Virus record (IMG/VR): IMGVR_UViG_3300029505_000004
Location: 460-64,459 of that record
Length of the DNA: 64,000 nt
Source: a virus
Reading direction: 5' to 3' (one strand)
Shown: positions 7,890-56,669 of the stretch, piece after piece
Numbering within the stretch: position 1 is the stretch's first letter
How the letters are laid out: each line of letters begins with the position of its first letter
Program-made: the position numbers and the translations under genes
The notes under the pieces: model-generated
What the model saw: the letters and a program-made list of their open reading frames with translations, nothing else
The model's database searches: none
What the model was told of the DNA's origin: nothing

Positions 7890-7890
7890 T

Positions 7891-30677: not shown

Positions 30678-31150
30678 TTGTTCTATTTATTATTTGGCTG
30701 CTTTCTTTTTTCTATCCGATCGAAATGCTGGCCGTTACAAACCACTCTTCTTGGTGGACGCTATTCACATATAATCTGGTACATACTTACTTTCTTCATC
30801 TTGCGGTTAATTGCTTTGTGTTCTGGACTTATTACCGCGTTCTTCATAAATCTGATCTTAAATTTTTGCTTCCGGCCTGTGTTATAATACCGGCCATATC
30901 CGGATATCTATCGGCTAAAGATGTTCCAACTTGCGGATTTTCCGCTGTTATTTCCGTGATAATGGGATATTATCTTTCTGGCATAAACAAGAAGCTTTTT
31001 CTGAAATCCATTTCACTTATTATTTTTTCTTATGTTTTTACCGGCTTGTTTGCGCACGGGGTAAACACACTCATCCATGTGTACAGCTTTTCATCCTCGT
31101 ATCTGGCTAGCCTAGTTTACAGGAGGATATTATGCAGGCGCAGGAAATAA
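30665..31150 (+). CDS. rhomboid-family intramembrane serine protease-like protein
   Basis: WTLFTYNLVHTYFLHLAVN reproduces the GlpG TM2 spacing W-x2-F-T-x4-H-x4-H-x3-N. CGFSAVISVIMGY matches the catalytic GxSG...MGY helix. A later AHGVN supplies the candidate His. Hydrophobic throughout. Confidence 0.8.
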   Translation: MPVIVVLFIIWLLSFFYPIEMLAVTNHSSWWTLFTYNLVHTYFLHLAVNCFVFWTYYRVLHKSDLKFLLPACVIIPAISGYLSAKDVPTCGFSAVISVIMGYYLSGINKKLFLKSISLIIFSYVFTGLFAHGVNTLIHVYSFSSSYLASLVYRRILCRRRK

Positions 31151-33147
31151 TAAAGAAAAACCTTGAAAGGCTCAAAGTAATTGAATCGCCTTACAATCCT
31201 CTTACCGGTGAAGGATCTTTTTCTATTGAGAGAGTAAAGGTAGCATGTGAAGATTTTCCTTTGAAGGGAATGTGGCTTCCGGTGGAATTTGCCAATACCG
31301 GCTTCTGTCAGGTTCTCATGTCTCTTGGAATACGTCTGTACATTGAAAGAATAATGCAGCAGGCGTATACAGAATACATGGCTAATCTTCTGTATGTTGA
31401 ATTTTGTCGGCAGAGATTTCTGTATGATTTTGAATTCTGGGCATACAGTACCGCTCTTATTTCTCCAAAGGGGGGTGGAGAGGATATACACTTCCTTCTT
31501 AACAGGGCACAGAGGACCTATCTTTGTACTCTGGAAAAGCTTAGAAAGAATAATGAACCTATCAACATAATACTTTTGAAAGCCCGGCAATGGGGCGGAT
31601 CTACTCTTACTCAGATATACATGCTTTGGATCCAGATCATTCATAGGAAGAACTGGAACAGTGTTATATGCGGTGATGTAGAATCCCAGTCAAACATTGT
31701 TTCGGGTATGCTTTCCAAAGTAATAGAACATTATCCCACATGGGCTACAAATGGTATTTCTTTGAAAACTACTCCGTTTGAAGGATCATCTAAAACAAGA
31801 CAGATACAGTATTGTCAGTGTCTTTACTCAATCGGATCGGCCCAGAAACCGGATAGCCTTCGTTCTCAAAATATATCTATGGCCCACCTGACAGAGGTGG
31901 GTTTGTGGAAGGAAACGAAAGGTAAAAAGCCTGAAGATCTTGTACAGTCTATTTTTGGATCAATCAATGACGGCCCTTACACAGTCAAGGTTCTTGAATC
32001 TACCGCCAAAGGTGTAGGAAACTATTTTCACAGAACATGGCTGAAAGCTGTAAAGGGAGAAAACGACTTTACACCCGTATTTATCCCGTGGTTCCTGATT
32101 GATATGTACTCTACTTACATAGGATATCAGAACTATCTGGATTTCATAGAATCAATGGATGAATACGAACACTACCTTTTTGAGTTGGGTGCTACTCTTG
32201 AAGCTATTGCCTGGTATCGGAAAAAGAAAAAAGGAATGGTTGAGGAATGGCGTATGTGTTCTGAATATCCTTCTGATCCGAAAGAAGCATTTCAGTCAAC
32301 CGGCCGCCCGTTCTTCCCCAGACAATATGTTGAACAGTGTCGTAAATCCTGTATGGATCCGGCTTTCTATGGAGAATTTGTCGGTGACGCAACTAAAGGA
32401 GAAAAAGCATTTGAAAATATACGGTTTGTTGAAGTCGAAAAACCGAAACAGAGAGAAAATGCGCTGCATGTATGGATGCTTCCAGACAAATCAAAAGGGC
32501 TTTACAGATACAGATATATTGTTTCTGTTGATATTGGTGGTACTGGAGATCAGGCAGACTACTCTTCGATTAAAGTATTTGACCGGCTTCCCATGATTGA
32601 AGGCGGTATTCCGGAAGTAGTTGCCGAATGGCATGGTCATATCGAACACGACCTTTTGATATGGAAAGCTGCCCAGATAGCTAAAGCTTATGACACGGCT
32701 TTACTTGTCATTGAATCCAATACATTAGAGACAGAAGGAACAGAAGGAGACAATTTTGAATATGTGCTTGATGAAATTGTTGATTTCTATCCCGACCTGT
32801 ATAGCCGCACAAGTCCGGAACAGATCAAACAGGGAGCACCGGTTAAATATGGTTTCCACACCAACCCTTCAACCAAGCCAATGGTTACCGGGTTCCTGAA
32901 GGCTGCCATGCGTGATTGCCTGTACATAGAACGAAGCTTAGAAACAACGTTTGAATACGACCAGTTTGAAATCAAAGAGGATGGCAAAAAGACTGGTGCT
33001 GTTGAGGGTTGCCATGACGACCGTGTAATGTCTACCGCAATAGGCGTATATGTTTGCTATAAGACAGAGAAACCATACAGGATTGCACAAAAAAATACGG
33101 GCCTTCAAAAGAGAAAAACCCGTATTGTTTCCGAAGCTTCCGTTTAA
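31132..33147 (+). CDS. terL: terminase large subunit
   Basis: ATPase motif LLKARQWGGSTL. Nuclease-domain motifs SVDIGGTGDQADYSSIKVFD and GCHDDRVMSTAIG. 671 aa. Confidence 0.8.
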   Translation: MQAQEIIKKNLERLKVIESPYNPLTGEGSFSIERVKVACEDFPLKGMWLPVEFANTGFCQVLMSLGIRLYIERIMQQAYTEYMANLLYVEFCRQRFLYDFEFWAYSTALISPKGGGEDIHFLLNRAQRTYLCTLEKLRKNNEPINIILLKARQWGGSTLTQIYMLWIQIIHRKNWNSVICGDVESQSNIVSGMLSKVIEHYPTWATNGISLKTTPFEGSSKTRQIQYCQCLYSIGSAQKPDSLRSQNISMAHLTEVGLWKETKGKKPEDLVQSIFGSINDGPYTVKVLESTAKGVGNYFHRTWLKAVKGENDFTPVFIPWFLIDMYSTYIGYQNYLDFIESMDEYEHYLFELGATLEAIAWYRKKKKGMVEEWRMCSEYPSDPKEAFQSTGRPFFPRQYVEQCRKSCMDPAFYGEFVGDATKGEKAFENIRFVEVEKPKQRENALHVWMLPDKSKGLYRYRYIVSVDIGGTGDQADYSSIKVFDRLPMIEGGIPEVVAEWHGHIEHDLLIWKAAQIAKAYDTALLVIESNTLETEGTEGDNFEYVLDEIVDFYPDLYSRTSPEQIKQGAPVKYGFHTNPSTKPMVTGFLKAAMRDCLYIERSLETTFEYDQFEIKEDGKKTGAVEGCHDDRVMSTAIGVYVCYKTEKPYRIAQKNTGLQKRKTRIVSEASV

Positions 33148-35126
33148 GCTGCTTGTTGTATTATTCCGTCTTGTGGAGAAGCATTTGCATCGTTCATCAT
33201 CTTCTCCATAAGTGCCGGATTTTGACTTGCTATCTGTTGCATCAGTGCCGGATCCATCTGTGTCATGTTCTGGTTTTCTGCCATTTCCTGCTCTGCACGT
33301 TTGATACTTTCCAATATCTTTGATGCAAAAGGCAGACTGGAGTTTTCCAGCAAGGTCTTTACGTTGATAGCCTGCATTTCAAACAGCTTCATCAGGAATT
33401 CGTTTTCAAGCATTTGGAATGTAGGTGTATTTGTTCCTTCTGTAAGTTCAAGATCAAGCTGCGCACCCTGAACCTTCTCCGGATCGTAATATTTAGATTC
33501 TTCAGAATAATCTTTTCCTCCCAATTCTATATATCTGGGCGAATCATAATATTGCTGAATGGTCTGCATCAGCTTGAGATCTCTCCTTTTCCGGAAGGCT
33601 TTAAACGAATCGAACAAACCTTTCAGGTTCATAGATGCGTTTTCTGTCTGTTGTGCATAAAGAGAAGCGGCAGTTCCGGATGAAGGATCCTTTCCCTGCA
33701 TAGCTGAGTTTACACCGGCAATATCATTGATCAGTTTTAACTGAAGGCTTAACAGTTCATAGTCCCCCTGAATGGCTCCGGATCCGTTAAGCTGTGTAAT
33801 GACTGAACGAATGTCTTTACCCGGTTTCAGTCGGCAGAAAAGAACTCCGTTATATCTTACGTATTCATCAATGATTTCTTCCCGGCTCATGCTGTCGAAT
33901 GCATCTTCATCCACAACTACCAGACCTTTTGCTGAAGAAGAACGTATAAAGTCTATCAGCGTCATGGTACGGTTGATACTTCTCTGCTGGTCGATAAAGT
34001 CCTCTATGAAATTGAATATCTTTCCGTGTATGATAGGATAAGCATGAAATACATAGTTGTGCTGGCCGTGCCAGTATGGGCTTCTTCCTTCCTGCAAAAC
34101 ATCACCCCACGGGGAAAGATATCTGTAATACCAGTATCTTTCTACTTTGAATTCGTATTCTATCAAAAGAATATCTTCCTCTTCTACTCCAGCTTCAAGT
34201 GCTTCGGATATTCTTTTCTGGTTTATGTATTCCAGCTTATTTACTTCGTTCAATCCGACAAAGCCCCAGCTTCCATCAAGCGTGTCGTGGTAGAAATATG
34301 CGTCCCTGCTCTCCAGCTTCCAGCCTAGGATAACCCGGCAAAGATCTACTTCTGCAGGTGTGTAAAAATCGGCATTTTTCTGGTTGTAACCCTGTACACC
34401 GTCAACGAATGATCTTCTTGGGTGATCATTGGTTCCATATATGCTTTCCAGCCATTCACGATCCTTTTTACTCTTTGCAAAGGCCGCGACTACCTGTTCA
34501 AAGTCCATATCAAAGATTTCACCGATGCAGGTTATATCCCATCCTCGCTGATCTTCTATGTTTGTATTGAAAAATAGCCGTGAGGGATCAACATTGTAAA
34601 CCCATGCATCATTCATGTGCTTGTACTCGTTGTACCCGAACTCTATTCTTTGTGCAATGTAGCCGCCACATTCCAGAACCATAAGGCTGGCTGCGTCCAG
34701 TTCTGTGATCTCGTTAAGTGACTGAGCATATTCCATTGCAATACTCATCATTTCACCGATCTTTGCTTCATCCCGATCTCTTACCGAGCATATAGGTTTT
34801 GTTACGTTTCTTCTGAACTGGCCTTCTATGTTCTTAACAATCGGTGCTATCATGTTGTTTTTCAAAGGAACCTTACCATTTTTCTTGATAAGTTCTCCTT
34901 CAGTCATCATCTTGCCGGTGTCCGGATCCTTTATATAGTCTCCCCATTGATCTTCTTTCGCATACATCAGGGATCTTTCCATTTTCTTACGGGCAGTGTA
35001 AAGGCTGCTCCAGTATGAAGCAAACTCTTCAAGTTCCTCATACGCCGTTCCTCTTGTGCGGTAAACGGTTTCTTTTGTCCTGTCGTCCCGCTTCGGCTTT
35101 ACAGATCTGTTTAAGAATTTATTCAT
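33144..35126 (-). CDS. putative portal protein
   Basis: 660 aa. N-terminal AKEDQWGDY-type motif common in portals. Adjacent to TerL and upstream of scaffold and capsid. Long helical Q/M-rich C-terminus. Confidence 0.65.
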   Translation of the reverse strand: MNKFLNRSVKPKRDDRTKETVYRTRGTAYEELEEFASYWSSLYTARKKMERSLMYAKEDQWGDYIKDPDTGKMMTEGELIKKNGKVPLKNNMIAPIVKNIEGQFRRNVTKPICSVRDRDEAKIGEMMSIAMEYAQSLNEITELDAASLMVLECGGYIAQRIEFGYNEYKHMNDAWVYNVDPSRLFFNTNIEDQRGWDITCIGEIFDMDFEQVVAAFAKSKKDREWLESIYGTNDHPRRSFVDGVQGYNQKNADFYTPAEVDLCRVILGWKLESRDAYFYHDTLDGSWGFVGLNEVNKLEYINQKRISEALEAGVEEEDILLIEYEFKVERYWYYRYLSPWGDVLQEGRSPYWHGQHNYVFHAYPIIHGKIFNFIEDFIDQQRSINRTMTLIDFIRSSSAKGLVVVDEDAFDSMSREEIIDEYVRYNGVLFCRLKPGKDIRSVITQLNGSGAIQGDYELLSLQLKLINDIAGVNSAMQGKDPSSGTAASLYAQQTENASMNLKGLFDSFKAFRKRRDLKLMQTIQQYYDSPRYIELGGKDYSEESKYYDPEKVQGAQLDLELTEGTNTPTFQMLENEFLMKLFEMQAINVKTLLENSSLPFASKILESIKRAEQEMAENQNMTQMDPALMQQIASQNPALMEKMMNDANASPQDGIIQQAA

Positions 35127-35221: not shown

Positions 35222-37474
35222 TTATTTCACTTCTTCAAGAAGTTCTCGTCTGGTTTCTATAATCATATCCTCTATTTCTTTTCGATCTTCTCCTTGAGAT
35301 TCTTTTGCCATATCGTTTAGTTTTTTCAACTTCTTCTGATATGGTTTGTATTTCTGGTATTTATCATACAGATCAGAATTCAGCATTTCTTTATACTCAT
35401 CTTTGTTTCCGCTTTTCTTTACACCATTAAGTTCATACTTAAACTGGTCCATTTCATCACGGAGATTAAAGTATTCTGTATTGATTCCAGAAAAAGCATT
35501 TCTTTCATCAACAGTATTAAGGAACCTGTTTACAATAGGAACATTTCTCATCACCAGATCTTCATCTTTCTGCTGTTCGATTAATGACTTTCCACCATAA
35601 TATATCGTTTTCCCAGCCTGATTGAATGTTTTGGCCATACCGCCAAAATAAGATTCAAGAAGGTGTTCTACTTTGGCAGGATTGAAATCTATAAATCCTT
35701 TTCGGAATTCAGATCCCGGACCACTACCGTTGCTGATATCATTCAGGAATTTGGAAGTATCAACAAGCCATCCTGACGTACCTTTATAAACTCTCTTCCA
35801 CTCCGGATCACGTTCGTTAAATGGAGATATCTTTGCTACCGGTTTCCCGGTGAAGTCCTGATTCCAGACATAAGCCTCAAATATTGGAGACATAATATCA
35901 GGCATAAACGTCTTTAAGCCTTCATTCCCTGTTGGATTTAAAGGCAAAAGATCTGCAAGCTGTCCTACTGTTCCTTTTGCGATATTGGTCGCGGAAGGCT
36001 TTTCTTTGCCGGTTGTAATCTGATAAGCATAATCACCCAGCCCGTAGAAAGCCCTTAATTCAATGGGAAGAGGAATAGTCAAAAACGTATCATTACCTGT
36101 ATATATACAGAGATTGTTTCTTCTTACCCATTCCGGCAGATCATTGTACGGATCATCGTCTCCACCGCCAAAGATACTGTACAATACATTGTTTATCATT
36201 GGCATTAAAAATCCTGCTGACATAAATCCGCCTAAAGCTGAATAGAACTTAACCGGTTGTTTGTCATACAGTCTTTTAAAATTGGTTAGAGACTGAACAG
36301 AAGCATTAAAGAAAAGATACAGGTTTCTGAATATACCCGAAGTCATTCCAAAAAATCCGCCGGTTTTATATCCGGCCCCTTTCTTGTTAAAGTTTACAGT
36401 TACTTCTTTCGCATCATTCACAGATTCCGTAATACTTCTACCCATTTGTCTGGAAGTCATGTACGTGGTAAATCGTGAAATATCTTCTGCCCATCTGTTG
36501 AAATCCTCAAGTCTGTCTATTGCAAAATCCATAGCCATCTTTGCGGATCCCATCTCACCGTTTATTTTTGGAAGTTCCTTCCTTACTTTTTTCTTGTACT
36601 TTTCAACATCATTCAGGTGCATGTATCCGGTTTCACCGCCATTCTCGATAAACTCCTGAAAATATCTGTCAGCTTCGGTGTTATTTGGCTTGCCATTCAG
36701 GTTTCTCAATACAACAGGCATGGCTTTCAGTATGTTCTTTCTGAACCTACTTGAATACTTCCCATCTTCTTTTATGCTTACAGCAACATTGGAAAATATC
36801 AGGTCTCTTACAAGGTTGCTTAACACAAAAGCCGGGTTTCTGGTAGTGAAGTTAGCCGCCAACCATCTGTTTGCAGTTGCAATGGATCTGAATATCGGGT
36901 TCTGTTCTACATTCGGGTTAGTCAATCCATTGATTGCCTGCGCTGCTCTTGGATTTCCATTAATGTATATAATATAATCTTTCCCGCCATTCTTTACCTG
37001 AACAACATGCTGGGAGATGTTGTTTTTATTGATCCTATAATTTATATTAAGACCATTTGACTTTTGTGTTGCACGCCCCTCATTTTTTAATTGCTTCATC
37101 TGCTCTTCGTGATTTTTGATCTTTTCAGCAATAGTTTCAGCGTTGTCGCTTTCTTGAATGTATGGCATAGATATATTCCATTCATCTTTTACCGGATCAT
37201 ATACATACCAAGCCTTTTTCAATGTAGCTATATCAGTAGGATGATTTATAACCATACTCATAAAACTTTGCTTCATCATGTTTCTGTTGCCTTGCATGAT
37301 AGCACTTTCGGCCATATTTCCAATTGTGGCAAATATTTCATCAGGAATACTCTTTCTTCCCTTTGCGGATTTCAGTACAGAACTTACAGGATTTCTTTCT
37401 GAATCAATATATTCATAAACATCTTCTGCTGTCTGTTCATCCCATCCGCGCAAGGGTACATAATACATGTACAT
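35222..37474 (-). CDS. C-terminal 750-aa fragment of the IS-split polyvalent protein
   Basis: The ORF begins MYMYYVPLRGW, directly at the IS target-site duplication. Deleting IS plus TSD (1089 nt, 3 x 363) fuses it in frame to ORF 38552-49933. Confidence 0.8.
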   Translation of the reverse strand: MYMYYVPLRGWDEQTAEDVYEYIDSERNPVSSVLKSAKGRKSIPDEIFATIGNMAESAIMQGNRNMMKQSFMSMVINHPTDIATLKKAWYVYDPVKDEWNISMPYIQESDNAETIAEKIKNHEEQMKQLKNEGRATQKSNGLNINYRINKNNISQHVVQVKNGGKDYIIYINGNPRAAQAINGLTNPNVEQNPIFRSIATANRWLAANFTTRNPAFVLSNLVRDLIFSNVAVSIKEDGKYSSRFRKNILKAMPVVLRNLNGKPNNTEADRYFQEFIENGGETGYMHLNDVEKYKKKVRKELPKINGEMGSAKMAMDFAIDRLEDFNRWAEDISRFTTYMTSRQMGRSITESVNDAKEVTVNFNKKGAGYKTGGFFGMTSGIFRNLYLFFNASVQSLTNFKRLYDKQPVKFYSALGGFMSAGFLMPMINNVLYSIFGGGDDDPYNDLPEWVRRNNLCIYTGNDTFLTIPLPIELRAFYGLGDYAYQITTGKEKPSATNIAKGTVGQLADLLPLNPTGNEGLKTFMPDIMSPIFEAYVWNQDFTGKPVAKISPFNERDPEWKRVYKGTSGWLVDTSKFLNDISNGSGPGSEFRKGFIDFNPAKVEHLLESYFGGMAKTFNQAGKTIYYGGKSLIEQQKDEDLVMRNVPIVNRFLNTVDERNAFSGINTEYFNLRDEMDQFKYELNGVKKSGNKDEYKEMLNSDLYDKYQKYKPYQKKLKKLNDMAKESQGEDRKEIEDMIIETRRELLEEVK

Positions 37475-37475
37475 G

Positions 37476-37482
37476 TTATTTA
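37476..37482. repeat. target-site duplication, left copy (TTATTTA)
   Basis: Identical 7-mer at 38565-38571, immediately outside the IS inverted repeats. Confidence 0.8.
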
Positions 37483-38564
37483 TTCCAATCAGCAGTTGAA
37501 CTGCTGTATTTTTATAAGTTTAACCGAGGTCATTTAGACCTCAAAAAAGTTGTAAATAGTTGAAAATTAAGGGATAAAATACTTGCAAAAGTCCTTGAAA
37601 ATCAGTAACTTAAAGTAAAAAACACCCCTATTTTTTGCTTGTTATGATTCCCAAGGACAAAGCTCTAAGACTTATAAGAACCTATATGTATATCTGCAAT
37701 ATGTACGAACAAAGTCTCAAATACCATTGCCAAAGATACAGCAATAATTCGAAACCGTTGTTCTCCGACGAGGAAATTCTCACGATTTATTTCTTTGTCG
37801 GTCATGAGCAGAAGTACACCCTCATCAAGGATATTCACAACTTCGCTAAAGAGTACCTACGCGACTGGTTCCCGAACCTGGTGTCCTATCAGACATTCAA
37901 TTACCGTCTAAATAGGATGGCCGGTGCTGTTACGGAACTGTCCTCACAGTTGTTAAGCATGTTCAAGCCTTCTGACTGTCAGGAAGATACCGTCATTGTT
38001 GACTCGATGCCGATAATCACATGCTGCGGAAGGAACCGTACAGGTAAGGTCGCCAGGGATATTGCCGACAAGGGATACTGTTCCACCAAGAACCTGTACT
38101 ATCATGGAATAAAGCTTCACATGGTAGGCTATCGAAGGAAAGGACATCTCCCGCATCCATGCCAGATCGCACTGTCGCCAGCATCCGAGAATGACCTGAA
38201 GGTCTTCCAGAGCGAATGCATGCCGAATCTTTTTAACAAGAAGATCTTCGCTGACAAGATATACCGAAGCTGTGACTACTGGGAGCTGGAGAGACGCGAT
38301 AAGGACAATGAGTTCTACGCTCCCGTCAAGTCCATCAAAGGGGCTTCCGAGGAAGAAAAGCAGAGAAGCAAGGCTGCAAATGACCTTTATTCTCAAGCCG
38401 TTTCTGCTGTTAGGGAACCCATTGAGGCACTCTTCAGTTGGCTGAACGAAAAAACAAATATTCAAAGAGCTTCAAAGTGCCGCTCTACTTGCGGACTGCT
38501 AATTCATACGATGGGAAAGGTTGCCATCGCATTTTTATACCTTATTTTCAACTACTGATTCAAA
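37483..38564 (+). mobile_element. insertion sequence, 1082 bp, DDE transposase (IS982-like / IS4-IS5 superfamily)
   Basis: Terminal inverted repeats TTCCAATCAGCAGTTGAA (37483-37500) and TTTGAATCAGTAGTTGAA (reverse complement of 38547-38564), 15/18 identical. Flanked by a perfect 7-bp direct repeat. Single transposase ORF. Confidence 0.85.
37644..38558 (+). CDS. DDE transposase
   Basis: ATG at 37644 (MIPKDKALRL...). The N-terminal FSDEEILTIYFF and later VDSMPI / ADKGY / FADKIY segments fit DDE_Tnp_1-type transposases. The stop lies inside the right IR. Confidence 0.8.
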   Translation: MIPKDKALRLIRTYMYICNMYEQSLKYHCQRYSNNSKPLFSDEEILTIYFFVGHEQKYTLIKDIHNFAKEYLRDWFPNLVSYQTFNYRLNRMAGAVTELSSQLLSMFKPSDCQEDTVIVDSMPIITCCGRNRTGKVARDIADKGYCSTKNLYYHGIKLHMVGYRRKGHLPHPCQIALSPASENDLKVFQSECMPNLFNKKIFADKIYRSCDYWELERRDKDNEFYAPVKSIKGASEEEKQRSKAANDLYSQAVSAVREPIEALFSWLNEKTNIQRASKCRSTCGLLIHTMGKVAIAFLYLIFNY

Positions 38565-41500
38565 TTATTTACATTAGAGTATTGTTCCTTTCCCATCATT
38601 CCGCTATCATAAGCCTTACGCAATGTGGTTTTGGTTGCATCGTTGATCTTATTCCACAACTCTTTTACATCATATGTCTGTTCAAAGTCCTTGACGTAAT
38701 TAAGCGCATCTTCTTGGAAGTTATCATGTTCTTCTCCGTCCATACTGTTAAGAATGGCCTGTGTAGCTGAATAGTCATTTACACCTCCAATATAATCACT
38801 CAGTTCTTTCAGGTATTCATATCCTGAATATAACTTCCTCAGTCTTTCCTTTTCATCTTTAAAATCCTGAATTAATTGATCCGCATTGCCCTTTTTGTTT
38901 TTGATAACTTCATCAAGCCGTTCCCGGAATGTAAGTTCTACGTTTCTTTCAATTCCGTGGGCCAACATCATATACCGTTCAATACCCTTTTGAGTAAGGC
39001 CGTACTTCTTCATCATCTTACCGGCTTCCTGAAGCATTGGCTGATAATGTTTCTTATAATACACTTCTGCTTCGGAAGTGTTTTTTGAACTTAACTGGTT
39101 TTCTGCCATGTATGCGTTCTCAAATGACTTTATAGGTTTACCGGAAACTTTAGCAATTACTTCCTGAAGGTTTTTCAAAGCAAGCATACTGTCTTGATAT
39201 GCTTCCTGTGCCTTATATTTCCATCCTTTCAAAGATTGCTCATACATACCTATACTTCCGTCTGTATCTTCCCTAAAGTAGTTACCTACTCCCATCTGGT
39301 ACTGCATGGCAACATCTTTGGCCAGATCAAGCGGTTTGTTTTTGTCTAGGTTCTGGCGGCTTCTCCAAAGGATATATTGAAGTTCATTATCACTTATTTT
39401 TATGTTAATGCCCATACGTCTCATAAGTGAATTGAATGCCTGTTTTATCCTTTGCCATACAGAAACGTCTACTCCGTTTTCAGCCATTCTTGCCATGTAT
39501 TCCTCTGTGGCTATACGTGAATTATATCCATATCTGGGAAGAGTATCAATAATTTTCTTCCTTACTTCATCGGTAACATTGGCAAAAACATCATCAAGAA
39601 AATCATCCATACGATCTTCTCCTACAAGCTGTCTCAATCCGTAATGTGCAACACCTTCGTGAAGGATAGTCTGGTTCACATCTTCCATGCTGGTAGCGTT
39701 AGGAAGATATACATACACTTTGTTGTCTGACAAAGAATACCATCCCTTTACTTTCCTTCCTTTTTCAATGGCAGATCTTACTGAGTTATCCTTTATCTGG
39801 TCAACAGAAGTTATAACCTCTACCGGAACATTCAACTTTTTAGATGTTTCTTCTACATCTTCCGATTTTATGTTGTTTAAGTCCTGATTTTCTTCCGAAA
39901 CCCTAAAACGCACATCTTCGCTATTCTCCAGTTTTGCCTTCTTTGATACGGTTACTCCCATCTTACTTAACCGGTCAAGAACTTTAGACAGGTTATCGGA
40001 AGAAATATCCGCAACCATGTAATTACCCCTAGTTGTAAACTCTTTGTTGTCAGCAAGTGAACGTAACTTGTTGTCCTCAAAGAATTCTCCACCTTGTTTT
40101 TTGGATTTAGGAACCTTTAAAGCATATCCGGATCTCCAGCCGGTGTTTTTCTCCACAATGACACGTTTATCTTCACTGATAACAGTTTCACCCTGCTGTA
40201 TCTGGATAAGTCTGCTGCTGATAGGAGCACTTGTTGTAAGATTTTCCGGCTTGAAGCTATCAGACATCAGAATACCCTGTTTCGTATCACCTTCAATAGT
40301 AGAATATGAAACCAGATATCCTTTTACGTTTTCTGATTTTTTTGTATCAACTAGGGCCTGCAGAAGGTTACCTGTAACAATATAGGCCTTCTTTCTTGTC
40401 TGGGTAGGCACATAAGAATCCCAGGTATCAACATTAAGATCCTTCAGGTAAGTCGGCTGCATCATTGTGTTCATACGGATCGAATTGAAAGCTTTTTCCT
40501 GATTTAACGGTATTTCTACTTTCCTTCTTCCGTCAAGAGTGGCAAAAATGGCAGTAGAAGAACTCGGTGAATAGTCCTTACTGAACTTGTACCCCAAAAA
40601 CATACCACGACTTGGCATAATTGTTACCAGTGTTTCGTCAAGATTGAATGGTATTACAAGAGGTTTCATAGGAGTAAACGAATTGATCTGCTTGCGAATG
40701 TTTTCCCTTCGGGCTTCAATTACGTTCTTCTGTTTTATGAAGCTTTCTTTCGATTTCTTCATAATATCCTCTACAACTACCTCGGACATTTTTTCAATTT
40801 CTTCGTCCGTAAACTCATTCTTTCCGTTTTTGCGGGCTTCTTTAGACTTTTCGATGTAGTTCTTCTTGGCTTTTTCAGAACGCTCTAACGCGCTTTGATC
40901 AAGCCTTTCTTTCAGAGTGGCAATTTTACCATCATACAATGAATTTATTTCCTTAACTCTATTGTCCAGCCATTCATTGAAAGGTTCTCCAGAAGTCATA
41001 CGACTAACTGTTGACTTGATTTCTTCCGCTTTCATGGGCTTTTTAAGGACATCTACTTCTACTTCTTCCAGATAAGTGTTATCCGCAAAGGCATTACCGC
41101 TATTGGGATCCGTTCCCGGCTTCCATATCTTTTTGCTGATAGTTTTGGCCTTCAACGGCATAGTGGTAATTTCAAGATCGTTTTCTCCGGCGTCATTAAG
41201 AAGCTGGATCTTTACATTGTATGCGTCTGTGATATCCTTGAAAACTTCTTCCTGTTCTTTTACAGGCAGGAATGGAAGATATCTGGCTATTTTGGCCGCA
41301 CACCCTTCTTTACCTGCGGTGTTGGTATCTCCTGACTGGGATTCTTCTCCTTCGCTTGTGAGGATTTTAAGAGGATCACCCAGTTTTTCGGACAACTCCG
41401 GATGCTCAAGCATATACTGCCATGTCACATCGTCACCGTACTTGTTGAGGTAATCAACAACTTCCATTTCGTTGAACTTGGATTTCTGAGAAGATGTAGT

Positions 41501-44500
41501 ATTTGCATCAAGAGACTTAAGTTTTGCCTTGAACATCATCTGTAATCTTTGTTCTGCCGGGATAGACGACATGATATACTCATATTTTCCTCTGAACTTC
41601 TGGCCGGTTCTGTCTATACGTCCTCGCATCTGCACTTCATCATTGATATCACTCTGGAACTGGGCAAACACCATGACGCGCTGACGCTGATCCTCAAACT
41701 TGGGTGAAGCATGAAGGGATATACCTGTACTACCAGACTTGTTTACCATAAGCACGTCAAGTTGTCCGTTGTTGAAATCACGTGCGGCAGACTTCTTATC
41801 ACGGTCCTTACGGTTCTGTATGACATACTTTCCGTTTTCGTCCTGAACCATCTCAAGTGTTCTACCTGTGATTTCTCCAACCTTATATCCTGCCTTCTGG
41901 ATCTTCATCTTAATTGCGTCCATAGGGCTTATAGGAAGGTCCGCGGAAAGGTTTTCAATCTTTTCCCTGATCTCGTAATACTTGTTTTGTCCGGCTTCCG
42001 GAAGGTCGTTCACAGTGAAGAACTTGTTTTCCTTTTCTCCCTTCAGGTTGGTTTCCGTATATCTCATAACTCCGTCAAGCGCACGCATAAGAGTTGCTGA
42101 GAAGTTTGGCACCTTATCCATAGGAGTGTCTTTAGGTGCTTCATCCAGAAATCCTTCCATCGTATTGGTGAAGGATATTACAGGCTTAAAACCATTCTTA
42201 AGGTTTTCAATAACCCTGTTGGCGACTGCATCTGCCTTAAGAGAGAAAAGCAACTGATTTACCAGATTATACATTTTGCTGGCAAATGGTGTATTGGTTA
42301 CTCCCAGTTCTGCGGTACCCTGCTGGAGATCGGAATAACCGCCTTGTTCGGACAATTCTTCGGAAATGCCTTCGACAATAGGTGTAATGTAGTCTTTCTG
42401 GAACGCCCTGATATCACTGAATATTGAAGATACTTCATCGAATTGTTTTCTCTGAACCGCATCTTCTTCTTCACTTACCGGCATCCAGTCAATAGTTACA
42501 CCTTGAAAACTTCTTTCTCTTCGGATCATCTGTCCGGATTGAACAAGCTGTTTGGACATGATCTCCTGCAATGTAACACCACCTTGAGATATTGCTTCGA
42601 TCATATCCTGTGGTGATATGCCAGACTTGGAAAGGTCGGTTTTCATTGCATATATAGGCATGTTATCCGCACGTTTGGCGAATGTGGCAGACAGGAATGT
42701 TACTCCTTTTACCTTTGGCATGATATACTGCATGTACATGGATCCACCGCCACTTCCACCGGCTGTATGACTTTCATCTAGGATCATAATGTTATCCTTT
42801 GACAAGGCTTGAATAACATCACGTCTTTCCTGACCGCTCTTGTCTGCTGCCGAAGGAGATTTCTTCTTATAACTCTTGTCTTTTTCAGCTATTCCATCTT
42901 CTTTTGGCTCATATTCTTTCGTTCCATTATTGATCTGGGAATATGTAGTTATGACGTAATCATACTCTTCTGGAAGCTTTCCGTTCTTCATAATGTAGTC
43001 AAACACTCTTTTCTTCTCCTTGTCGGTAGGAAGTTTGTGTACTACATTCCCGGACGCATCAGTAATAGCTGCGTTTTTTGGATCTGACGCGATGATAAAC
43101 GGCCTTAAATCTCCGCTGCCTATATCTGCAAGGTCTCTGTAATTATCAGAGAAAAGCGCGGGCTTCTGAGTGAAGTATATAGGGTTATAACCCTTCCTTA
43201 CCGCATATCTGATTAAGGCTGCACCCTGACGGCCCTTTCCGACACCGGTCATATCTCCGATAATGAATCCGTTTCCTTTATTCATCTGGTTTATAGCCAA
43301 AGAAACAGAATCAATCTGTTCAGCGGCCAGATAACTGAACAGTTCGTCTTTGCTTGAATATCCAAGCTGGTCAACCAAGAACTGGTCTACATCACCAATG
43401 TTAGCCAGAGAATCGGCAAGAACTTGTGCTTGATTTGCCGGAACAACTGACATAAGTGTACCGGACTGGCTTCTGTTGGGATATGGGACTTTTTCATCAC
43501 TGAGGTTTACTGATAATCTGCTTCTGCCGGTGTTATCTCCTGAATCAGATCTGACAGATCCACCATTCCGGCTTCCTCCGGTACTTCCTCCGTTATCAGA
43601 TCCTCGCTGCTCTTGAACAGGTTCAACGCTTCCTGCATTTGATCTGTCCGCATTATCCAATTTGCCAGCATTTTCTTCTGCTGTGGATCGTTCAGCCTGC
43701 TCTGGTCCGGATGCGGTAGTATTACCGGTGCTTCCCATGTCATTGTCAGATCCGACTTTTTTGTCTGGTCGTACGGATTTTCCCCGTTCTCCAGACTTTG
43801 GTCTATTGCTGACATTATTGTTTGCTCCACTTCCTTCTGTGTCAGTGGTCCGGGTTTCTCCTTCTGTACCGTTAAAGAGATCCCCCATTTGCTGTAATGA
43901 ACGTATATCATCTTGAACTCGGTTATATAATTCTTCAAAGCTGTTTATCTGTTCCGCTCTTGCTTTGCTCTTAACCGGTGGAGCAATAAGTTTAAACGGA
44001 CCAGTTTTTCTTCCGTTGATAAGGATAATACGAACGTCATATTTAGTTCCGTTCCTCTTGTACATATCCCCGTTAAGGTTGATAACATCAACCACATTAT
44101 AGTGTGAGTAAAGATACGCAAAAAGTTTCATATCTTTGCTCTGCATCGCACCATTATCTCGATAAGAAGTATTTCCACCGATAACAATAGCCGCCCTTCC
44201 GTTATCCTTCATGGATTCAAGCGCATTAATAGCCATCAAACCTTCCAGAGAACTGATCTTGATCTGTCCGTCGTCGAATTCTTTTGCGGTTGTCGATCCA
44301 AATGGGGGATTTGTCAGAACTGCGTCAACAGATCCTTCAAATGGTATCAGTGCATCCTGATTGGTTACCTGGGCATATCCCAGCGTACGAAGGTTTTCCA
44401 GTCTCCTTTCATCAATATCATTAACATGTACAGTATTGGCCGGGAAAGCTATTGTTAGTGCGCCATTCCCTGCTGAAGGTTCCAGAACGCTTTCAACCGT

Positions 44501-47500
44501 TTTGCCATCCTTGACAAACTTCCCCATTACATATCCGAAGGGAGTAGGCGTACTGTATTGCTGGCGTTCAAACCTTGTGCTGTCTCTTGCATTAAGAAGA
44601 GGTTGCATATTGTACATATCGACAATAGTGTCATATCCCTGCTTTTGTTTTGTTGCGTCTCCGTTAATGTAGGATTCAGCTATTAATCTTGTCTCGTTGG
44701 TCATTGCCAGTTCAACAAGTTCCTGCATATCTGTTGCTGACATGTCAGAAAGCATGTCATAACCCTTAAGGATATCTTTAACTTCCTTCATGGTTAGGGG
44801 ATCTACCTGTTCATCATTTCTCTTAGCTATTGCCTTCTCTGCAATTTTAACGCCAATTATAGAAACGGCTTCTTTCTCCTGCTCGGCTTTTTTCTGGTAT
44901 TCCTCAGAGTTGCCAAAGAGATCAGAAGGTGATTTTTTTACATCATTACTGGAAGTTGCCTTTTCTATTTCCTTCTCTTTAGCAACATTTTCTATCTGCT
45001 GCATTACATCAGGAACAGACTTATCGAAGTTGGTTACATCAAACTGACTGACTTCGCTGTCCGGGCTCATTCTTTCCGACAAGCCGTTTTCTATTGATTG
45101 CGGCATATATCTTGCGGAGCTATAAAATGACTTCAAGTAAGGCCTGATAACGTCTCCAAGATCATCTACCATTGCTTTGCAATAGTCTGCAAACTTGACT
45201 GCACCGCGTTCTATGTGGTACACAGCCATTTCTGCGCCAATAGCAATAATTTCAGGATCAATACCGGCATTTAGCTGGCCCAACTTCTGTTTAAGTCTAT
45301 TTTTAAGTTCCTGGTAACGTTCATCGGAAACAATGTTGTTACTTTTTGCAGGTGTATCTTCTGCGTTAGTGGTTGTTTCCTTTTCGGAAACAGGCACTAC
45401 ACTCTTATACTCAGCAAAAGGTTTGGTTTTTCTGTGGGATGAATTAACCCACTTCTTAAACTCTTCTTTGGAAACACGTGTTATGTTTCCTAGTCCGGTC
45501 CAGTCTTTTGAGTAATTAGCCATGTATGCGCGTTTGGCCGCAAGGGCTGATTTAAACCCATACATAACCTTGTGTTCGTCAAATGTTCCATCAGGGTTTA
45601 CCTGATCAATAACAAACACATCACCAGTTTCCGGGTTATCAGAAAGGAATACATCAATGTGATCACCATCTACGCCCTCGGTACCGTGGATATATCCATA
45701 GTCGTTGTTCATGGTAACAGACCATTCATTACCATCTGCGTCTTTTCCAGAACGTACAGATCCCTTCGGGTTTTCAATAGTTACATCGTACCCGTCAATC
45801 TTAACATGGCCTTTCTTGTAGTTACCGGCTTCCTTCTGTGCTTCAGTTGGATTTTGATCTACTTCCGCACGTGCAGCTTCGATATCGGTTTTTACTGTTC
45901 CTTCTGGTTCAGGTACCACGCTACCGCTTTTGCCATCAGTTTTAATTGCTGGCTCCGGTTGTTCTTCGACTTCTCCAGTTCTTCCTTCGTTATCACTTTC
46001 GCGTTCAGGCTGAACTGTATTGCCTTGTTCACTGTCTGTTTGTCCTTCAGTGCTTCCTGCACTTTCTGTTTCTGCTCTTCGTTCATAGTCGTTAATGATT
46101 TGCTCAAAGATAGTATTTAATTCTTCATCTGTTACGGATGAATACAAGTTATTAAGTTCTTCTTCGATATAGTCTGAATATGCAATCCATTCAGGTACCG
46201 ACATTCTGTTTTCAGAAGCTTCCCATTCAATAAGCTGGCGTTCCTGATCTTCTTCATATCCCGGAATGTTTTCTTCGATATCGGTTCCATGCATGTTTTT
46301 TGCGGCGTCCCACATCTTAGAAGGACTTCCATATTCTTGGAAAGCATTAATGATCATGTTGAACACGTCCTGATCAGTAACCATTCCCTGCAAGTTCTCC
46401 GGCATATCAGCATGGATCTGTTCTGCTGCGGCTTCTGGCGTTAAACCATCGGAAGATAATGCCCATACAAGCTTTTTCCTTTCTTCCGGTGAGTTGGAAT
46501 AGCCCAGATGTGAAGAAAGGCCCTGTGCTCCTTCTGTGTCAGACAGAGAGAACGAAACGCGGCCTGTTGCTATTTCTCGCAAAACATGTTCCTGTGGAGT
46601 TATGGAAGGGCCTAGATCTGCATCTTCTTTGACATAACGAACCTTTTTCCGCGGTTCCTTGCGTTCAAAGGCTCCTGCATCAATCTTCTTCTGAACTTCC
46701 TGCTGTGCAGCTTGCTGTTCTTCGGCTGTCATGGATGCAAGACGTTGCTGGTTTTCTTTAGCCTTTTCTTCTGCCTGAGCAATAAGTCCGGTAGGCCTTT
46801 TTGCTTCAAGATCCGCTGCAACCTGATTCCAATAGGATATCTTGTCATTGATAGCTTTTTTTGCCTTCTTTGTCTCAATAATTCCCTGAATAGTGTTTCC
46901 GGAAGATTTTTTCTTTTCAACTTTTTTTAGTTCGTTATTATAATACTCAATCATCTGCGTTACGGTGTCCTTCGCATCATCAACATTATCACTGATTTCC
47001 AGCAATGCGGCAGAAGTATCTGCAATCGGTGCGGCTTCAAAGTCTTGTTCACCTCTTTCGTTAAGAGGAATGCGAGACATGGCAGTCTGATTTTCCTGAA
47101 CCGGTTGTTCAGAAGTTTCTTCCTGTACAGGCTGTTCAGCTACAGAAGGCTGTGTTTCTTCTCCATTAGCTGGCTGTTGGCCGTTGATGGCATTTCTTAT
47201 TTCTTCTTCGGACATCAGCTGTGACTGGGCTGGCGTTCCATTTTCATCAAGAAGGTACACTTCATATCCGTCTGGAGTTACCCTGTTGACTTCATAATTG
47301 TTTCCACCCATTGTAAATCTGGTTTCTGGTCCTATGGGCTGTTGTTCTTGGGCCGGAATAGAATTAATCTGTGCTTCTTCGGCTTGCAAGACTTCTTCTT
47401 GCGCATCATTACCGGCACGCTGGATCATTTCTTCTGCCGGTGTATTATCTACAAGAGAACTGAACATAGATACAGGAGCCATTTTCACACGTCCATCTTC

Positions 47501-49933: not shown

Positions 49934-49934
49934 A

Positions 49935-51029
49935 TCAGAAACCTTCTATTTTTTTCTTTGTGTTTGTTTTTGAAGAGGATCCAAAACCATCAATAGTTTT
50001 CCGATCCTTTTCATAGTTCCCTGTTATATCTCTCTTGTTGTCGATAGATGTCATTATGACTTCTCTCATATCATCAATAGTTGTCGGGTTAGATGTATCC
50101 ATGTTTACTATTTCAGGGAAATATCCAATTTCCACGCCTTCATTGTACATCTTAGCAACATCTTCCGGCTTGTTGAGATCTCTTTGTACGCCATTCTTCC
50201 CAAACCGGACAACAGGATATGTAACCTTTCCTTTCTTGCCCTTAGTTCCGGAAGTTGTGATTTCTCCCTGACGATACTTTTCTCTTTCCATTGCGGCCTT
50301 ATTGTTCATGGCAGCACGGGCTGATGCAGCTTTGTCCTTAACCTTCTGCAAGGCTTTAGCGTCATTGGCTTTCTGTGCCTGCTTAGTCAGGTCCGCGGCA
50401 GTCTGTTTATCCATAAGACCGGCCTTGATAGATGCGTTAAGTTCTGCTAGCATACGATCCTTGTCGGCTTTCAGACGTATAGTCTCCTGCTGGAGCCTTG
50501 CTTCTCTGTCTGCCTTCGCATTGGCCAGTGAATAATTGAGAAGAGTATCATTATATCCGTCACGAAGTCTGTCAAGGGCTTGATTATATGCCGGAACATT
50601 ACTCTTGATAGGTTGAAAAATTCTGGCACCAGCGGCAGAGGAAACTGTCTGTCCAAAAAGGTTCGCTAGGTTTCCCCAGAACTCTGCGGCACGTTGTCTC
50701 TTTATACTTTCCTCGCCAGATTGGTACTTCTGATCAAGAAGGGCCTTAAAGACATCTTCACCATCCTTCACGCGATCAGCAACACTCTTTTGCCGGTTTA
50801 TCTCGTTGGCTGCGTTATTGATCTCTTCGACAGGATTTCTCTGTTCAACCTGATTTTCGGGCTTAAAATCCACTCCAGAAGGATATTTTTGCCCGGAATT
50901 CTGATTTTGGGCGCGTGAGAATTGAAAATTCAGAGACGATCCGGGAGATTCTCCGTAATTTCCCAATCTCGGAAGCCTTGAAGTGTCTACGGGATCAGGT
51001 TTCTTCTTAATGTAGTCGAATAAGCCCAT
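49935..51029 (-). CDS. hypothetical protein, candidate internal/ejection protein
   Basis: 364 aa, Q/A/K-rich coiled regions, immediately upstream of the polyvalent gene. Confidence 0.6.
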   Translation of the reverse strand: MGLFDYIKKKPDPVDTSRLPRLGNYGESPGSSLNFQFSRAQNQNSGQKYPSGVDFKPENQVEQRNPVEEINNAANEINRQKSVADRVKDGEDVFKALLDQKYQSGEESIKRQRAAEFWGNLANLFGQTVSSAAGARIFQPIKSNVPAYNQALDRLRDGYNDTLLNYSLANAKADREARLQQETIRLKADKDRMLAELNASIKAGLMDKQTAADLTKQAQKANDAKALQKVKDKAASARAAMNNKAAMEREKYRQGEITTSGTKGKKGKVTYPVVRFGKNGVQRDLNKPEDVAKMYNEGVEIGYFPEIVNMDTSNPTTIDDMREVIMTSIDNKRDITGNYEKDRKTIDGFGSSSKTNTKKKIEGF

Positions 51030-52360: not shown

Positions 52361-53596
52361 TTATATCCGCATCATTAAAGCTTCATTCCTCAACTCCAGA
52401 TAAGGCTTGTACTTGTCCGGATCATTGACATAATCACACACTCTTGCAACACATATACTGGCTTGCTGGCTCCTGATTTTGGTATAATATCTTATAATGC
52501 CTTTGGCCCGATCGCTATGTCCCAGACAATAATTGATAACTCCGTCCGGCATACCCAGGTCACATGCGAATTGAGCAAAACATTTCCGCGCTGAATAGAA
52601 TATTACTTTCTCTTCTATTCCCAGTTCTTCCGCAAGAAGCGACAAACAATAAGATACATACTGGGAAAAGTTATGATAGGTGTAATTATACCCGAAATCA
52701 AGCTTTCCATCACTCTTGATCCATTCCTGATAATACTTCTTGATATTCTCCGGCATGGTAAAAGATATCCGGTTCTCCTGCTGTGTCCTTCCTGCTGACT
52801 TGGTTCTTACATAGCTGACATCTTCCTTCCGGAAGTCTACGTTCATAAGGTCTATCAGATTCATGCCGCCCAGAGAGAAGGAAAGCATAAACAGATCTCT
52901 TGCCATTCTTAACCTCTTTCTTTCCGGATTGCTGTACATGATCTTACGGAAAGATTCAATACTTAACGATACATCGCGGACCGGTGCCGGTGATATCTTG
53001 GTTGTCGCGAACGGATGAATAGAATAAGTTACCATCTGATCCGATACGGCTTTGTTCACAATGACCTTAATGTGGCTTAGTATAGTATTGATATACGTTT
53101 GGGTTTTCCCGGCCTTCTTTAGTTTATCAGCAAAAGATTTAATCAGGACCGGTGTTATATCCTGCATATCTATATCTCCATTGCAATACTCACAAAAGTA
53201 ACGGGATGATCTCTCCATCAGTTTTGCATACGATGATCTGTTGTTGTCCAGAAGATAACTCACATACTCGTTAGATATTCCGCGAAATGTGACTTCCGTG
53301 TCAGAAGGCCCGGCCTTGATGATGTCTCTCAATTGCTCGCAGGTGTAGATGCCGGTGTTGCGAATGTTATCCAGCCGTTCTTCGTACAGATCCATCATTG
53401 CACGCAACTTTTTATTGAGTGCTGATGCATCCGGGTGCTTGACGATCTTCCCATTTTTAAGCTGGCTTGGATCTGCCAGAATGATTGATGTTACGATGTA
53501 ACTTGTACGCGACTTGTGACGGACCGCAATTCTCAATTTATGCGTTCCATTGATAAGTTGTCTTTCGGGGATAATTACAGGATTGATTGTTGCCAT
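52361..53596 (-). CDS. int: tyrosine-type site-specific integrase
   Basis: 411 aa. Bacteroidota phage-integrase layout, with candidate catalytic-region motifs ARDLFMLSF, SARKCFAQF and LGHSDRAKGIIRYY. Adjacent to a tRNA-derived att core. Confidence 0.9.
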   Translation of the reverse strand: MATINPVIIPERQLINGTHKLRIAVRHKSRTSYIVTSIILADPSQLKNGKIVKHPDASALNKKLRAMMDLYEERLDNIRNTGIYTCEQLRDIIKAGPSDTEVTFRGISNEYVSYLLDNNRSSYAKLMERSSRYFCEYCNGDIDMQDITPVLIKSFADKLKKAGKTQTYINTILSHIKVIVNKAVSDQMVTYSIHPFATTKISPAPVRDVSLSIESFRKIMYSNPERKRLRMARDLFMLSFSLGGMNLIDLMNVDFRKEDVSYVRTKSAGRTQQENRISFTMPENIKKYYQEWIKSDGKLDFGYNYTYHNFSQYVSYCLSLLAEELGIEEKVIFYSARKCFAQFACDLGMPDGVINYCLGHSDRAKGIIRYYTKIRSQQASICVARVCDYVNDPDKYKPYLELRNEALMMRI

Positions 53597-53741
53597 AGCT
53601 GATCTTCAAATTAAAGGTAATTTTTTGGGTACTCTTTTTCTTCCAAAAGTGGAAGAATTTTCCTTTTTTTTGAAGGTTGCCGGAGTTTTTGTGAGAAAAT
53701 CAATAGGGTAAACTCCTTATTTTTCAGCCTGTTATGAATTG

Positions 53742-53783
53742 AGCCGAAAGCGGGACTCGAACCCGCGACTTACTCATTACGAA
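53742..53783 (-). other. attP core candidate: 3' half of a tRNA-Thr(CGT) gene (anticodon loop to discriminator)
   Basis: The - strand reads TTCGTAA (anticodon loop, CGT), TGAGT, AAGTC, then the T-arm GCGGG-TTCGAGT-CCCGC, then TTTCGGC-T. No matching 5' half (acceptor GCCGAAA, D-arm) exists upstream. Confidence 0.6.
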
Positions 53784-53879
53784 TGCAATATCCGACTACC
53801 CTTTAATGTATTGGTTTTTAATCAGTTATAAAGATTTTTTGAAATTTAAAAGGTACTTTTTTGGTATTCAGTTACTCTT

Positions 53880-55454: not shown

Positions 55455-55676
55455 ATGTCGGATAAAATAACAGTAACAGACATTCAGAGGATTGAGCCGG
55501 GTACCTCAATGACGTGGACACTCCCTCCTGCTAAATGCTTGTCAGCAAAAGCAATGGCATACGAATATGCCTTCAAGAAGAAGGATCCTCGCATAGAGAG
55601 ATACAAGGTAAGTATCAACACCAAAGAATCAAAGATAACCATTACAGCAATACCAGTTAAACCCAAACAATTATGA
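55455..55676 (+). CDS. hypothetical early protein
   Basis: 73-aa ORF, first gene rightward of the switch region. Confidence 0.55.
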   Translation: MSDKITVTDIQRIEPGTSMTWTLPPAKCLSAKAMAYEYAFKKKDPRIERYKVSINTKESKITITAIPVKPKQL

Positions 55677-55891
55677 TGAACAGAATTTCTAAAACAGCTT
55701 TAGCCGCTATTACGGCAATTATCTTAATCGGTTTTCTAGTCAATAACCGGAAAGACTATTCTTCAGATGTTATCAGCCAGATCAATGAAAATGCAAAGGC
55801 TTCCATCATGTATAAGCTGGGGCCGGATGCAACAGATACCGAGATCGCGCGCGAATACCTAACCAATAAAGACTTCTACGATGCTCAATGA
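55673..55891 (+). CDS. small membrane-anchored protein
   Basis: 72 aa. TM segment ALAAITAIILIGFLV. ATGA overlap with the neighbouring gene. Confidence 0.55.
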   Translation: MMNRISKTALAAITAIILIGFLVNNRKDYSSDVISQINENAKASIMYKLGPDATDTEIAREYLTNKDFYDAQ

Positions 55892-56111
55892 AACGGCAAT
55901 AATGATCACGATGAACAATAAGACGTTTGGCCTTCGTGAATCAGCGTCTATTGTCGGTGGAATGTCACGTTTGCAAAAGCTTCTTGACAACGGATCTATA
56001 AGGTTCCACAAGAAGAGTGACAAACAAAATGCCAAGACGTTCTGCAATGCGTGGGACGTTCTGAAAAATGCTTCGATTGAACGTGCCATAGTAGGCCGTC
56101 CAAGAAAGTAA
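55881..56111 (+). CDS. hypothetical small protein (possible HTH)
   Basis: 76-aa ORF ending 4 nt before tRNA-Arg. The start is uncertain. Confidence 0.45.
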   Translation: MLNETAIMITMNNKTFGLRESASIVGGMSRLQKLLDNGSIRFHKKSDKQNAKTFCNAWDVLKNASIERAIVGRPRK

Positions 56112-56115
56112 GATA

Positions 56116-56187
56116 CGCTTTGTAGTTCAACGGATAGAACGGAAGTTTCCTAAACTTCAAATCCGGGTTCGATCCCCGGCAAAGTGA
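56116..56187 (+). tRNA. tRNA-Arg (anticodon CCT)
   Basis: Hand-folded cloverleaf: acceptor CGCTTTG/CAAAGTG, D-stem GTTC/GAAC, anticodon stem GAAGT/ACTTC with loop TTCCTAA, T-arm CCGGG-TTCGATC-CCCGG. No encoded CCA. Confidence 0.85.
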
Positions 56188-56622: not shown

Positions 56623-56669
56623 CGCTTGTAGAAAAGCAATTCTATTTTCTTAATCTTAACCACTGGACA

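Follow-up and report, generated by a model that had tools for sequence, protein, structure and literature searches.

A complete IS982-like insertion sequence divides a giant DarB-like polyvalent gene in a temperate Bacteroidales phage

Two neighboring open reading frames (ORFs) in a viral genome raise the question of whether they are two genes or one. They lie on the minus strand of a 64,000-nucleotide stretch of DNA (positions 460 to 64,459 of IMG/VR record IMGVR_UViG_3300029505_000004; hereafter, the window), encode 3793 and 750 amino acids, and flank a segment bounded by inverted repeats. A preliminary description, made from the sequence alone, had read this segment as an insertion sequence (IS) that divides a single giant gene. 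We conclude that the gene is indeed divided, and we are highly confident that the cause was a single recent transposition of a Bacteroidales IS982-like IS into a temperate phage. The features on which this conclusion depends are as follows.

37476..37482, no strand: left copy of the target-site duplication (TSD), TTATTTA (7 bp), read from the sequence and present as a single copy at empty sites
37483..38564, plus strand: complete IS982-like IS, 1082 bp, with ends common to the base with other copies, and missing from empty-site phages
37483..37500, plus strand: left terminal inverted repeat (IRL), 15/18 identical to the right repeat and the same in all copies
38547..38564, minus strand: right terminal inverted repeat (IRR), 15/18 identical to IRL, placed by comparison of copies
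38565..38571, no strand: right copy of the TSD, TTATTTA (7 bp), read from the sequence and present as a single copy at empty sites
37644..38558, plus strand: transposase gene, 304 aa, with ATG at 37644, its stop inside IRR, and residues D120, D204 and E261, supported by Pfam and NCBIfam profiles, homolog lengths and alignment
38552..49933, minus strand: upstream fragment of the giant gene, 3793 aa (LPD14, InPase, methyltransferase (MTase) motifs, Sbno-type helicase, HExxH peptidase motif), with its last three residues and stop from the IS
35222..37474, minus strand: downstream fragment, 750 aa (LPD38), beginning at the ancestral internal Met3791
33144..35126, minus strand: portal gene, immediately downstream of the giant gene, placed by gene context and found in the same place in phage BS-TP4

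The boundaries of the insertion are exact. Positions 37483-37500 read TTCCAATCAGCAGTTGAA, the reverse complement of 38547-38564 reads TTTGAATCAGTAGTTGAA, and 15 of the 18 positions agree. Each inverted repeat is abutted by one copy of a perfect 7-bp duplication, TTATTTA, which cannot be extended on either side; the coordinates of repeats and duplication given in the preliminary description were all correct when checked against the sequence. A degenerate pattern for the inverted repeat found no places in the 64-kb window beyond the two ends of the IS (0.08 expected). We then carried out the excision that had been proposed earlier. In silico deletion of 37483-38571 (1089 nt) joined ORFs 38552-49933 and 35222-37474, both on the minus strand, into one 4540-aa ORF that reads ...GKEQYSNVNN/MYMYYVPLRGW... 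across the junction. The insertion point falls at codon 3790/3791 of this gene, and the IS is in the opposite (antisense) orientation. The ends of the two fragments were also described properly: the upstream fragment closes with NVNNLNQ and a stop, and the downstream fragment starts with MYMYY at an ATG right at the junction. The insertion had further been called "in frame," which is true insofar as 1089 nt is a multiple of three. However, the term is overstated, as the IS carries 23 stop codons in the frame of the giant gene, the first after 3 codons. Because of these stops, the multiple-of-three length has no functional meaning and is a coincidence without functional consequence.

The allele that preceded the insertion is present in relatives. 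A 601-aa query across the restored junction returned 14 IMG/VR loci. Six IMG/VR phage contigs match the 127-nt restored junction exactly (127/127 nt, 0 mismatches) and have TAAATAA once; a seventh IMG/VR contig matches it with 1 mismatch. The flanks of the empty-site phages are 98.2-98.6% identical to the window, the nearest differing by 1.4-1.8%. Relatives at 72-74% protein identity, together with the cultured Bacteroides phages BKO1-TP3, BS-TP4 and BF1-TP2, align in one piece across the junction. In BS-TP4 the ortholog, gp3, is one 16,176-nt coding sequence (CDS) directly upstream of the portal gene, with gene order as here; its protein aligns continuously over the junction and the methionine is conserved. 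The search for uninterrupted relatives that the preliminary description had suggested was thus successful, and no relative was found with a natural stop and start at this position. Exact look-ups for an IS-free twin, using the portal gene and the gene upstream of the giant gene, recovered the same clone only.

We asked what kind of gene was interrupted. Pfam profiles identify LPD14, InPase, AAA_34, Helicase_C_4 and LPD38 in the giant gene. The upstream fragment matches phrog_14770 (a single protein, 3427 positions) to approximately position 2134 and the downstream fragment matches it over 2712-3419, and both fragments match phrog_10089, "DarB-like antirestriction," collinearly (E = 4.9e-90 and 2.1e-19). 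The gene combines many effector and LPD domains in one polypeptide and lies beside the portal and terminase genes, the terminase being at 31132-33147, with a like gene order in BS-TP4. This is the arrangement of phage-type polyvalent proteins (Iyer et al. 2017, PMC5512222; phrog_10089; Bcep22-like giant virion proteins), which are encoded by giant multidomain ORFs beside portal and terminase. Shared with them are InPase, LPD14, LPD38, the MTase motifs (EPSAGNG...NPPF), an Sbno/SNF2-type helicase and HExxH, and both InPase and LPD38 are listed as phage-type-only polyvalent domains (Iyer et al. 2017, PMC5512222). Unlike the known phage-type polyvalent or DarB-like genes, the gene is interrupted here. 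DarB-like antirestriction proteins are packaged into virions and protect incoming DNA from restriction; the product of the present gene resembles them in sequence and may have such a role. All recognizable enzymatic modules are kept in the 3793-aa ORF, and the LPD38 module is in the 750-aa ORF. Taken together, the excision, the empty sites, the single BS-TP4 CDS and the collinear PHROG matches bear out the earlier claim that one gene was disrupted into two, and we read the annotated pair of ORFs as one disrupted 4540-aa DarB-like polyvalent gene. Chance alone explains why the IS is located in this gene, because the restored gene, at 13.6 kb, makes up 21.5% of the phage genome and, of the 9 exact target heptamers, 2 lie within it.

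The giant gene also varies among phages in ways of its own. Two relatives gave longer matches, L006 (+852 nt) and L012 (+621 nt), which we considered as other mobile insertions and rejected, as they are in-frame protein modules and represent domain variation. The extra in-frame module (L006 3001-5655; L012 3001-5424) has 207-284 aa (…VVYHGT…GFFFTN…), lies about 230 aa upstream of the junction, and has motifs that recall an ART-type domain; it shows the domain-level plasticity of the polyvalent gene. Four further loci (L001, L002, L004 and L007) are set apart from the window by roughly 0.8 kb of sequence lying further upstream. At the 5' end of the gene, window 49677-49946 consists of three tandem 90-nt units, two identical and the third 64% identical, that encode a repeated 30-aa motif (...YDVGDFDSFSKNVQDETKRKSLYETITNDG...), and several assemblies break or collapse one unit there.

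What element interrupted the gene? At 304 aa, the transposase has the modal length among its homologs. The NCBIfam IS982 model NF033520 aligns with it along positions 1-237 of the 243 in the profile (E = 3.3e-32); the score, 112 bits, does not reach the curated cut-off of 130, and the Pfam matches are marginal (DDE_Tnp_1_3, 25.9, cut-off 27; DDE_Tnp_1, 24.2, cut-off 23). Residues D120, D204 and E261 are invariant in 13 aligned sequences, down to 44% identity. In the same alignment, the positions at E+6/7 are L267 and N268, neither lysine nor arginine (K/R), and K278 at E+17 is nearly invariant. IS982 transposases are atypical DDE enzymes that lack K/R at E+6/7 but carry, about 17 aa past the E, a semi-conserved K/R (PMC7335449). 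A family member from Bacteroides fragilis, IS1187, is 1028 bp in length, with a 21/22 inverted repeat and a direct repeat of 7 bp (PMC7335449). Like IS982 and IS1187, the element here is about 1 kb with terminal inverted repeats, a 7-bp duplication and a single ORF that ends within the right repeat, belongs to the Bacteroidales host group, and has no K/R at E+6/7 but a K near E+17. Unlike the family, its termini start with TTCC/TTTG instead of 5'-AC, and its NCBIfam score falls short of the cut-off (112 < 130). The inverted repeats of IS982 elements end in 5'-AC in 57 of 69 ISfinder members, with the consensus AC(N)6T(N)5TT (PMC7335449), and the ends of this element read TTCCAATCAG... and TTTGAATCAG... 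in all copies, without the usual 5'-AC. Relatives of the transposase are labelled in their sources merely "transposase" or "IS4/IS5 family." A search of annotated phage and plasmid collections with the IS DNA gave 0 matches, and a tblastn search of phages with the transposase gave one weak partial match and nothing else. The element looks like a divergent IS982-like IS, apparently from a divergent Bacteroidales clade, and is intact as judged from its complete ends and intact DDE transposase.

Other copies of the element support its ends and point to its origin. The copy scan took in one genome per species and returned 73 loci. Ten further copies are full-length (1082-1084 bp); each aligns over the whole IS, base 1 through base 1082, with identical termini, and additional copies beyond these ten have the same ends. 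This agrees with the base-exact boundaries proposed earlier and, with the IS982-type DDE transposase, establishes that the element is an IS; the assignment of the inverted repeats and the duplication holds in all of the copies. Perfect 7-bp TSDs flank copies L019, L027, L088, L097 and L098. The same heptamer is duplicated in a complete Alistipes chromosome (TTATTTA), in L027, a 70%-identical copy (TAAATAA), and in IMG/VR contig L088 (TAAATAA), and TTAATAA is the duplicated target at other copies. These duplications define a target preference of the element, TTATTTA/TTAATAA. Several contigs from metagenome-assembled genomes (MAGs) have imperfect flanks that fit the same AT-rich pattern, which may result from chimeric assembly across the repeat or from decay.

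Chromosomal copies with an identical transposase and a 1-nt difference lie in ordinary Bacteroidales contexts with SusD and GH43 neighbors, and copies 92-100% identical are found in MAGs and genomes labelled Phocaeicola, Alistipes, Dysgonomonas, Bacteroides and Cryptobacteroides. The phage copy is thus a very recent arrival from a host chromosome. One 99.4%-identical copy (L015 1340-2421, Phocaeicola sp. MAG JAXEBI010000134.1) was considered as the source of the window and rejected, being another locus with different flanks and no TSD (TTACTAA vs TAATATT); its mismatched flanks may have arisen when copies recombined, or the MAG contig may be chimeric. A 92%-identical IS also occurs on two unrelated contigs recorded as "viral," L088 3258-4341 (IMG/VR UViG_3300029875_000140) and L089 (UViG_3300029612_000398). 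The copy in L088 has a perfect TAAATAA duplication and a position that appears intergenic from the ORF list.

Four assemblies hold the insertion: ERZ28598520, ERZ1303602 (also JGI 3300045988), ERR1190748 and ERZ27272429. Except for one 90-nt repeat unit that has been collapsed, their IS, junctions and flanks agree at 100% identity, and the fragment lengths of 3725, 3717 and 3763 aa found in assemblies come from contig ends or repeat collapse. We considered whether the four represent an evolving lineage and rejected this, because they are 100% identical and one clone. An assembly chimera, in which IS reads from a host chromosome were wrongly assembled into the contig while the phage gene in the sample is uninterrupted, could be proposed, given that the IS is multi-copy in Bacteroidales, that many matches are IS-only contigs of about 1.1 kb, and that the Logan assembly breaks inside the IS. 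However, a mis-join gives no perfect 7-bp target duplication, both junctions are identical in four assemblies from different pipelines, and the duplicated heptamer equals the target of the element in independent copies. We therefore consider a chimera extremely improbable. The insertion itself is uncontradicted: it is a cleanly proven, biologically ordinary event.

We also considered how the IS could have reached a phage. The window is phage throughout, with terminase, portal, capsid-like and tail-fibre-like genes, an S24 repressor, integrase, RecT, exonuclease and helicase. A 60.3-kb contig of the same clone runs from window 55531-64000 through 310 nt into window 1-11874, all 100% identical, and the map is circular, at approximately 64.3 kb including the IS. 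Two features define its integration site.

53741..53785, minus strand: core of the phage attachment site (attP), 45 nt that are the same as the 3' portion of a tRNA-Thr(CGT) gene from a bacterium, supported by identity with the tRNA and by a junction contig
52361..53596, minus strand: phage integrase beside attP

The junction contig, L110, comes from the assembly that gave the 60.3-kb contig and has 541 nt of bacterial DNA joined to the phage exactly at window 53785 (L110 1-586 including the core). Its bacterial side carries the N-terminus of an acetyl-CoA hydrolase and then the tRNA-Thr(CGT) gene, and the bacterial CDS fragment has a GC content of 56% compared with 40% for the phage. The 58-aa acetyl-CoA hydrolase fragment from this flank of the bacterial attachment site (attB) matched no named protein. 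An integrase, an att core equal to the 3' end of a tRNA and a host-phage junction are thus all seen, as in temperate phages that integrate at tRNA genes, and the host is a member of the Bacteroidales, the virus being a temperate gut phage. The IS-bearing phage was found integrated at tRNA-Thr, and the window's own contig reads phage-core-phage (attP), which argues, indirectly, that the prophage still excises.

Would the divided gene still be expressed? A scan of 37200-38800 found no terminator-like structure within the IS on the strand of the gene. The 750-aa ORF starts with an ATG that lies one base beyond the TSD in an A-rich, unstructured context and encodes an ancestral internal methionine conserved even in BS-TP4. 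Because of the missing gene-strand terminator and the context of the ATG, it is plausible that the 750-aa piece and the portal are still expressed. The IS adds 1.7% to the genome length, which should still fit the capsid because it is within the cited packaging tolerance of 105-106% of genome length (PMC3429520).

The position of the ATG, one base past the TSD in its A-rich unstructured context, would also suit an adaptive fission or regulatory switch, selected for separating or silencing the LPD38 module or for an outward promoter of the IS, as IS1187 provides for cfiA; this IS982-family element supplies promoters in Bacteroides (PMC7335449). The promoter searches speak against such a role. 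Sigma-70-like matches for an outward promoter are at chance level and misplaced, and a hybrid one has its -10 downstream of the ATG. There is no Bacteroides -7 motif near the outward-facing left end, the sole TAnnTTTG on that strand in the IS being about 250 nt upstream, and the motif occurs at chance frequency (69 found, 65.5 expected). In addition, a single clone has the insertion and all relatives keep one ORF. We regard adaptive fission as very unlikely.

The sequence of events that we favor is a single transposition, as follows. An intact 1082-bp IS would have moved once, recently, from a Bacteroidales chromosome into the phage, most likely during lysogeny, because the phage integrates at tRNA-Thr. 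The DDE transposase would have made staggered cuts at TTATTTA, and gap repair would have produced the 7-bp duplication. The phage would tolerate the hit, as the target is a giant accessory gene that takes up about 21.5% of the genome and that the phage can probably do without in a permissive host, and transcription through the IS would leave the 750-aa piece and the portal expressible.

The weaker points of this reading lie in the consequences of the insertion. The region of the junction is conserved down to 36% identity, so that the junction may cut a folded domain instead of a linker. The case for excision of the prophage, read-through of attP in one scaffold, is indirect. The four IS-bearing assemblies may come from one sample or cohort, and among them we found no sign of spread as virions or of diversification after the insertion.

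Some of these points would also fit a decaying prophage, in which the IS is one lesion in a defective, vertically inherited element without infectious particles. The integrated form at tRNA-Thr exists, only one identical clone has the insertion, the junction lies in a conserved region, and gut Bacteroidia commonly have IS insertions in their prophage genes (PMC10592638). Against decay, the window contig reads through attP, and two assemblies are circularly permuted without host flanks, an indication of DNA that was excised or replicating. The remaining large ORFs for structure and replication are intact, and the IS is 0-1 nt from chromosomal copies, indicating a very recent event. A decaying prophage is a possibility that we take seriously, though we think it somewhat unlikely. 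It is doubtful, too, that the IS-bearing genome is a fully infectious phage. If it were, the polyvalent protein would tolerate fission into a 3793-aa effector part and a separately made 750-aa LPD38 part, the insertion would be a natural experiment on the module needed for packaging and delivery, and the phage would be an active vehicle carrying an IS between Bacteroidales genera.

IS are uncommon in phages; in a survey of 900 phages and plasmid-database phages, 92% had none (Leclercq and Cordaux, PMC3429520). They are documented in Bacteroidales prophages, for example in phage011a of P. gingivalis (PMC10367356), and almost every individual has gut Bacteroidia with IS insertions in mobilome genes, those of prophages included; the active elements include members of the IS982 family (PMC10592638). 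As in these IS-carrying phages and prophages (PMC3429520, PMC10367356, PMC10592638), the single transposition that we favor placed an IS that is almost the same as chromosomal copies in an accessory gene of a temperate Bacteroidales phage. Unlike the cited cases, it is resolved to the base with empty-site alleles, and there is evidence for both the integrated and the attP form of the IS-bearing genome. The kind of event is already known, and no new kind of system is revealed. The analysis corrects the annotation, in that two ORFs become one disrupted 4540-aa DarB-like polyvalent gene, and it offers a clean, base-resolved example of an IS in a phage with the pre-insertion allele to hand. It also defines an IS982-like element, with exact ends and a TTATTTA/TTAATAA target preference, and presents a case for asking if IS are carried about by temperate gut phages and if a polyvalent protein can withstand being split.

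The left end of the IS contains additional structures.

37490..37516, plus strand: hairpin CAGCAG-TTGAA-CTGCTG and a T-run, in and next to IRL, terminator-like, the only such site in 37200-38800
37524..37544, no strand: second stable hairpin, GAGGTC/GACCTC, followed by an A-run; folding of the left end has z = -4.06 on the minus strand
37556..37580, plus strand: subterminal repeat similar to the inner portion of the right end (4 edits in 24 nt; 0 of 2000 shuffles did as well)

The hairpin and T-run at the left inverted repeat would shield the transposase gene from inward transcription. In the 70%-identical copy, L027, a hairpin of other sequence (GCCTC/GAGGC) occupies the place matching 37524-37544, and the left-end hairpin structure may therefore be conserved between the two. 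The preliminary description had pointed to the subterminal repeat and proposed that it marks additional transposase-binding sites, a role that it may have; the repeat is real by the shuffling comparison. However, it is not kept in L027, where we did not find it.

Other observations concern the phage genome outside the giant gene. It carries two tRNA genes, tRNA-Arg(CCT) at window 56116-56188 and tRNA-Met(CAT) at 56549-56623. A 24-nt unit (CAGCGACCGCCGGAGATAATGGTG) is tandemly repeated about 3.3 times in window 63927-64000 and the 310-nt gap (L101 8397-8475; L102 17-186), with the helicase block on one side and the early genes on the other. The repeat resembles an iteron array and could be a candidate replication origin. 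Finally, a 66.8-kb contig (L103, Logan SRR27226847_1155) contains phage DNA 99.8-100% identical to window 1-9886 and another IS at 9828-11421. This IS belongs to the ISL3 family, is 1594 bp long, and has inverted repeats GGCACAGTTGCA... and an 8-9-bp duplication, GATATTCA(G). Its site corresponds to window ~9083-9091, about 13 codons into ORF 9046-9579 (dGTP_diPhyd_N); in this phage species it is the second IS insertion, independent of the first.

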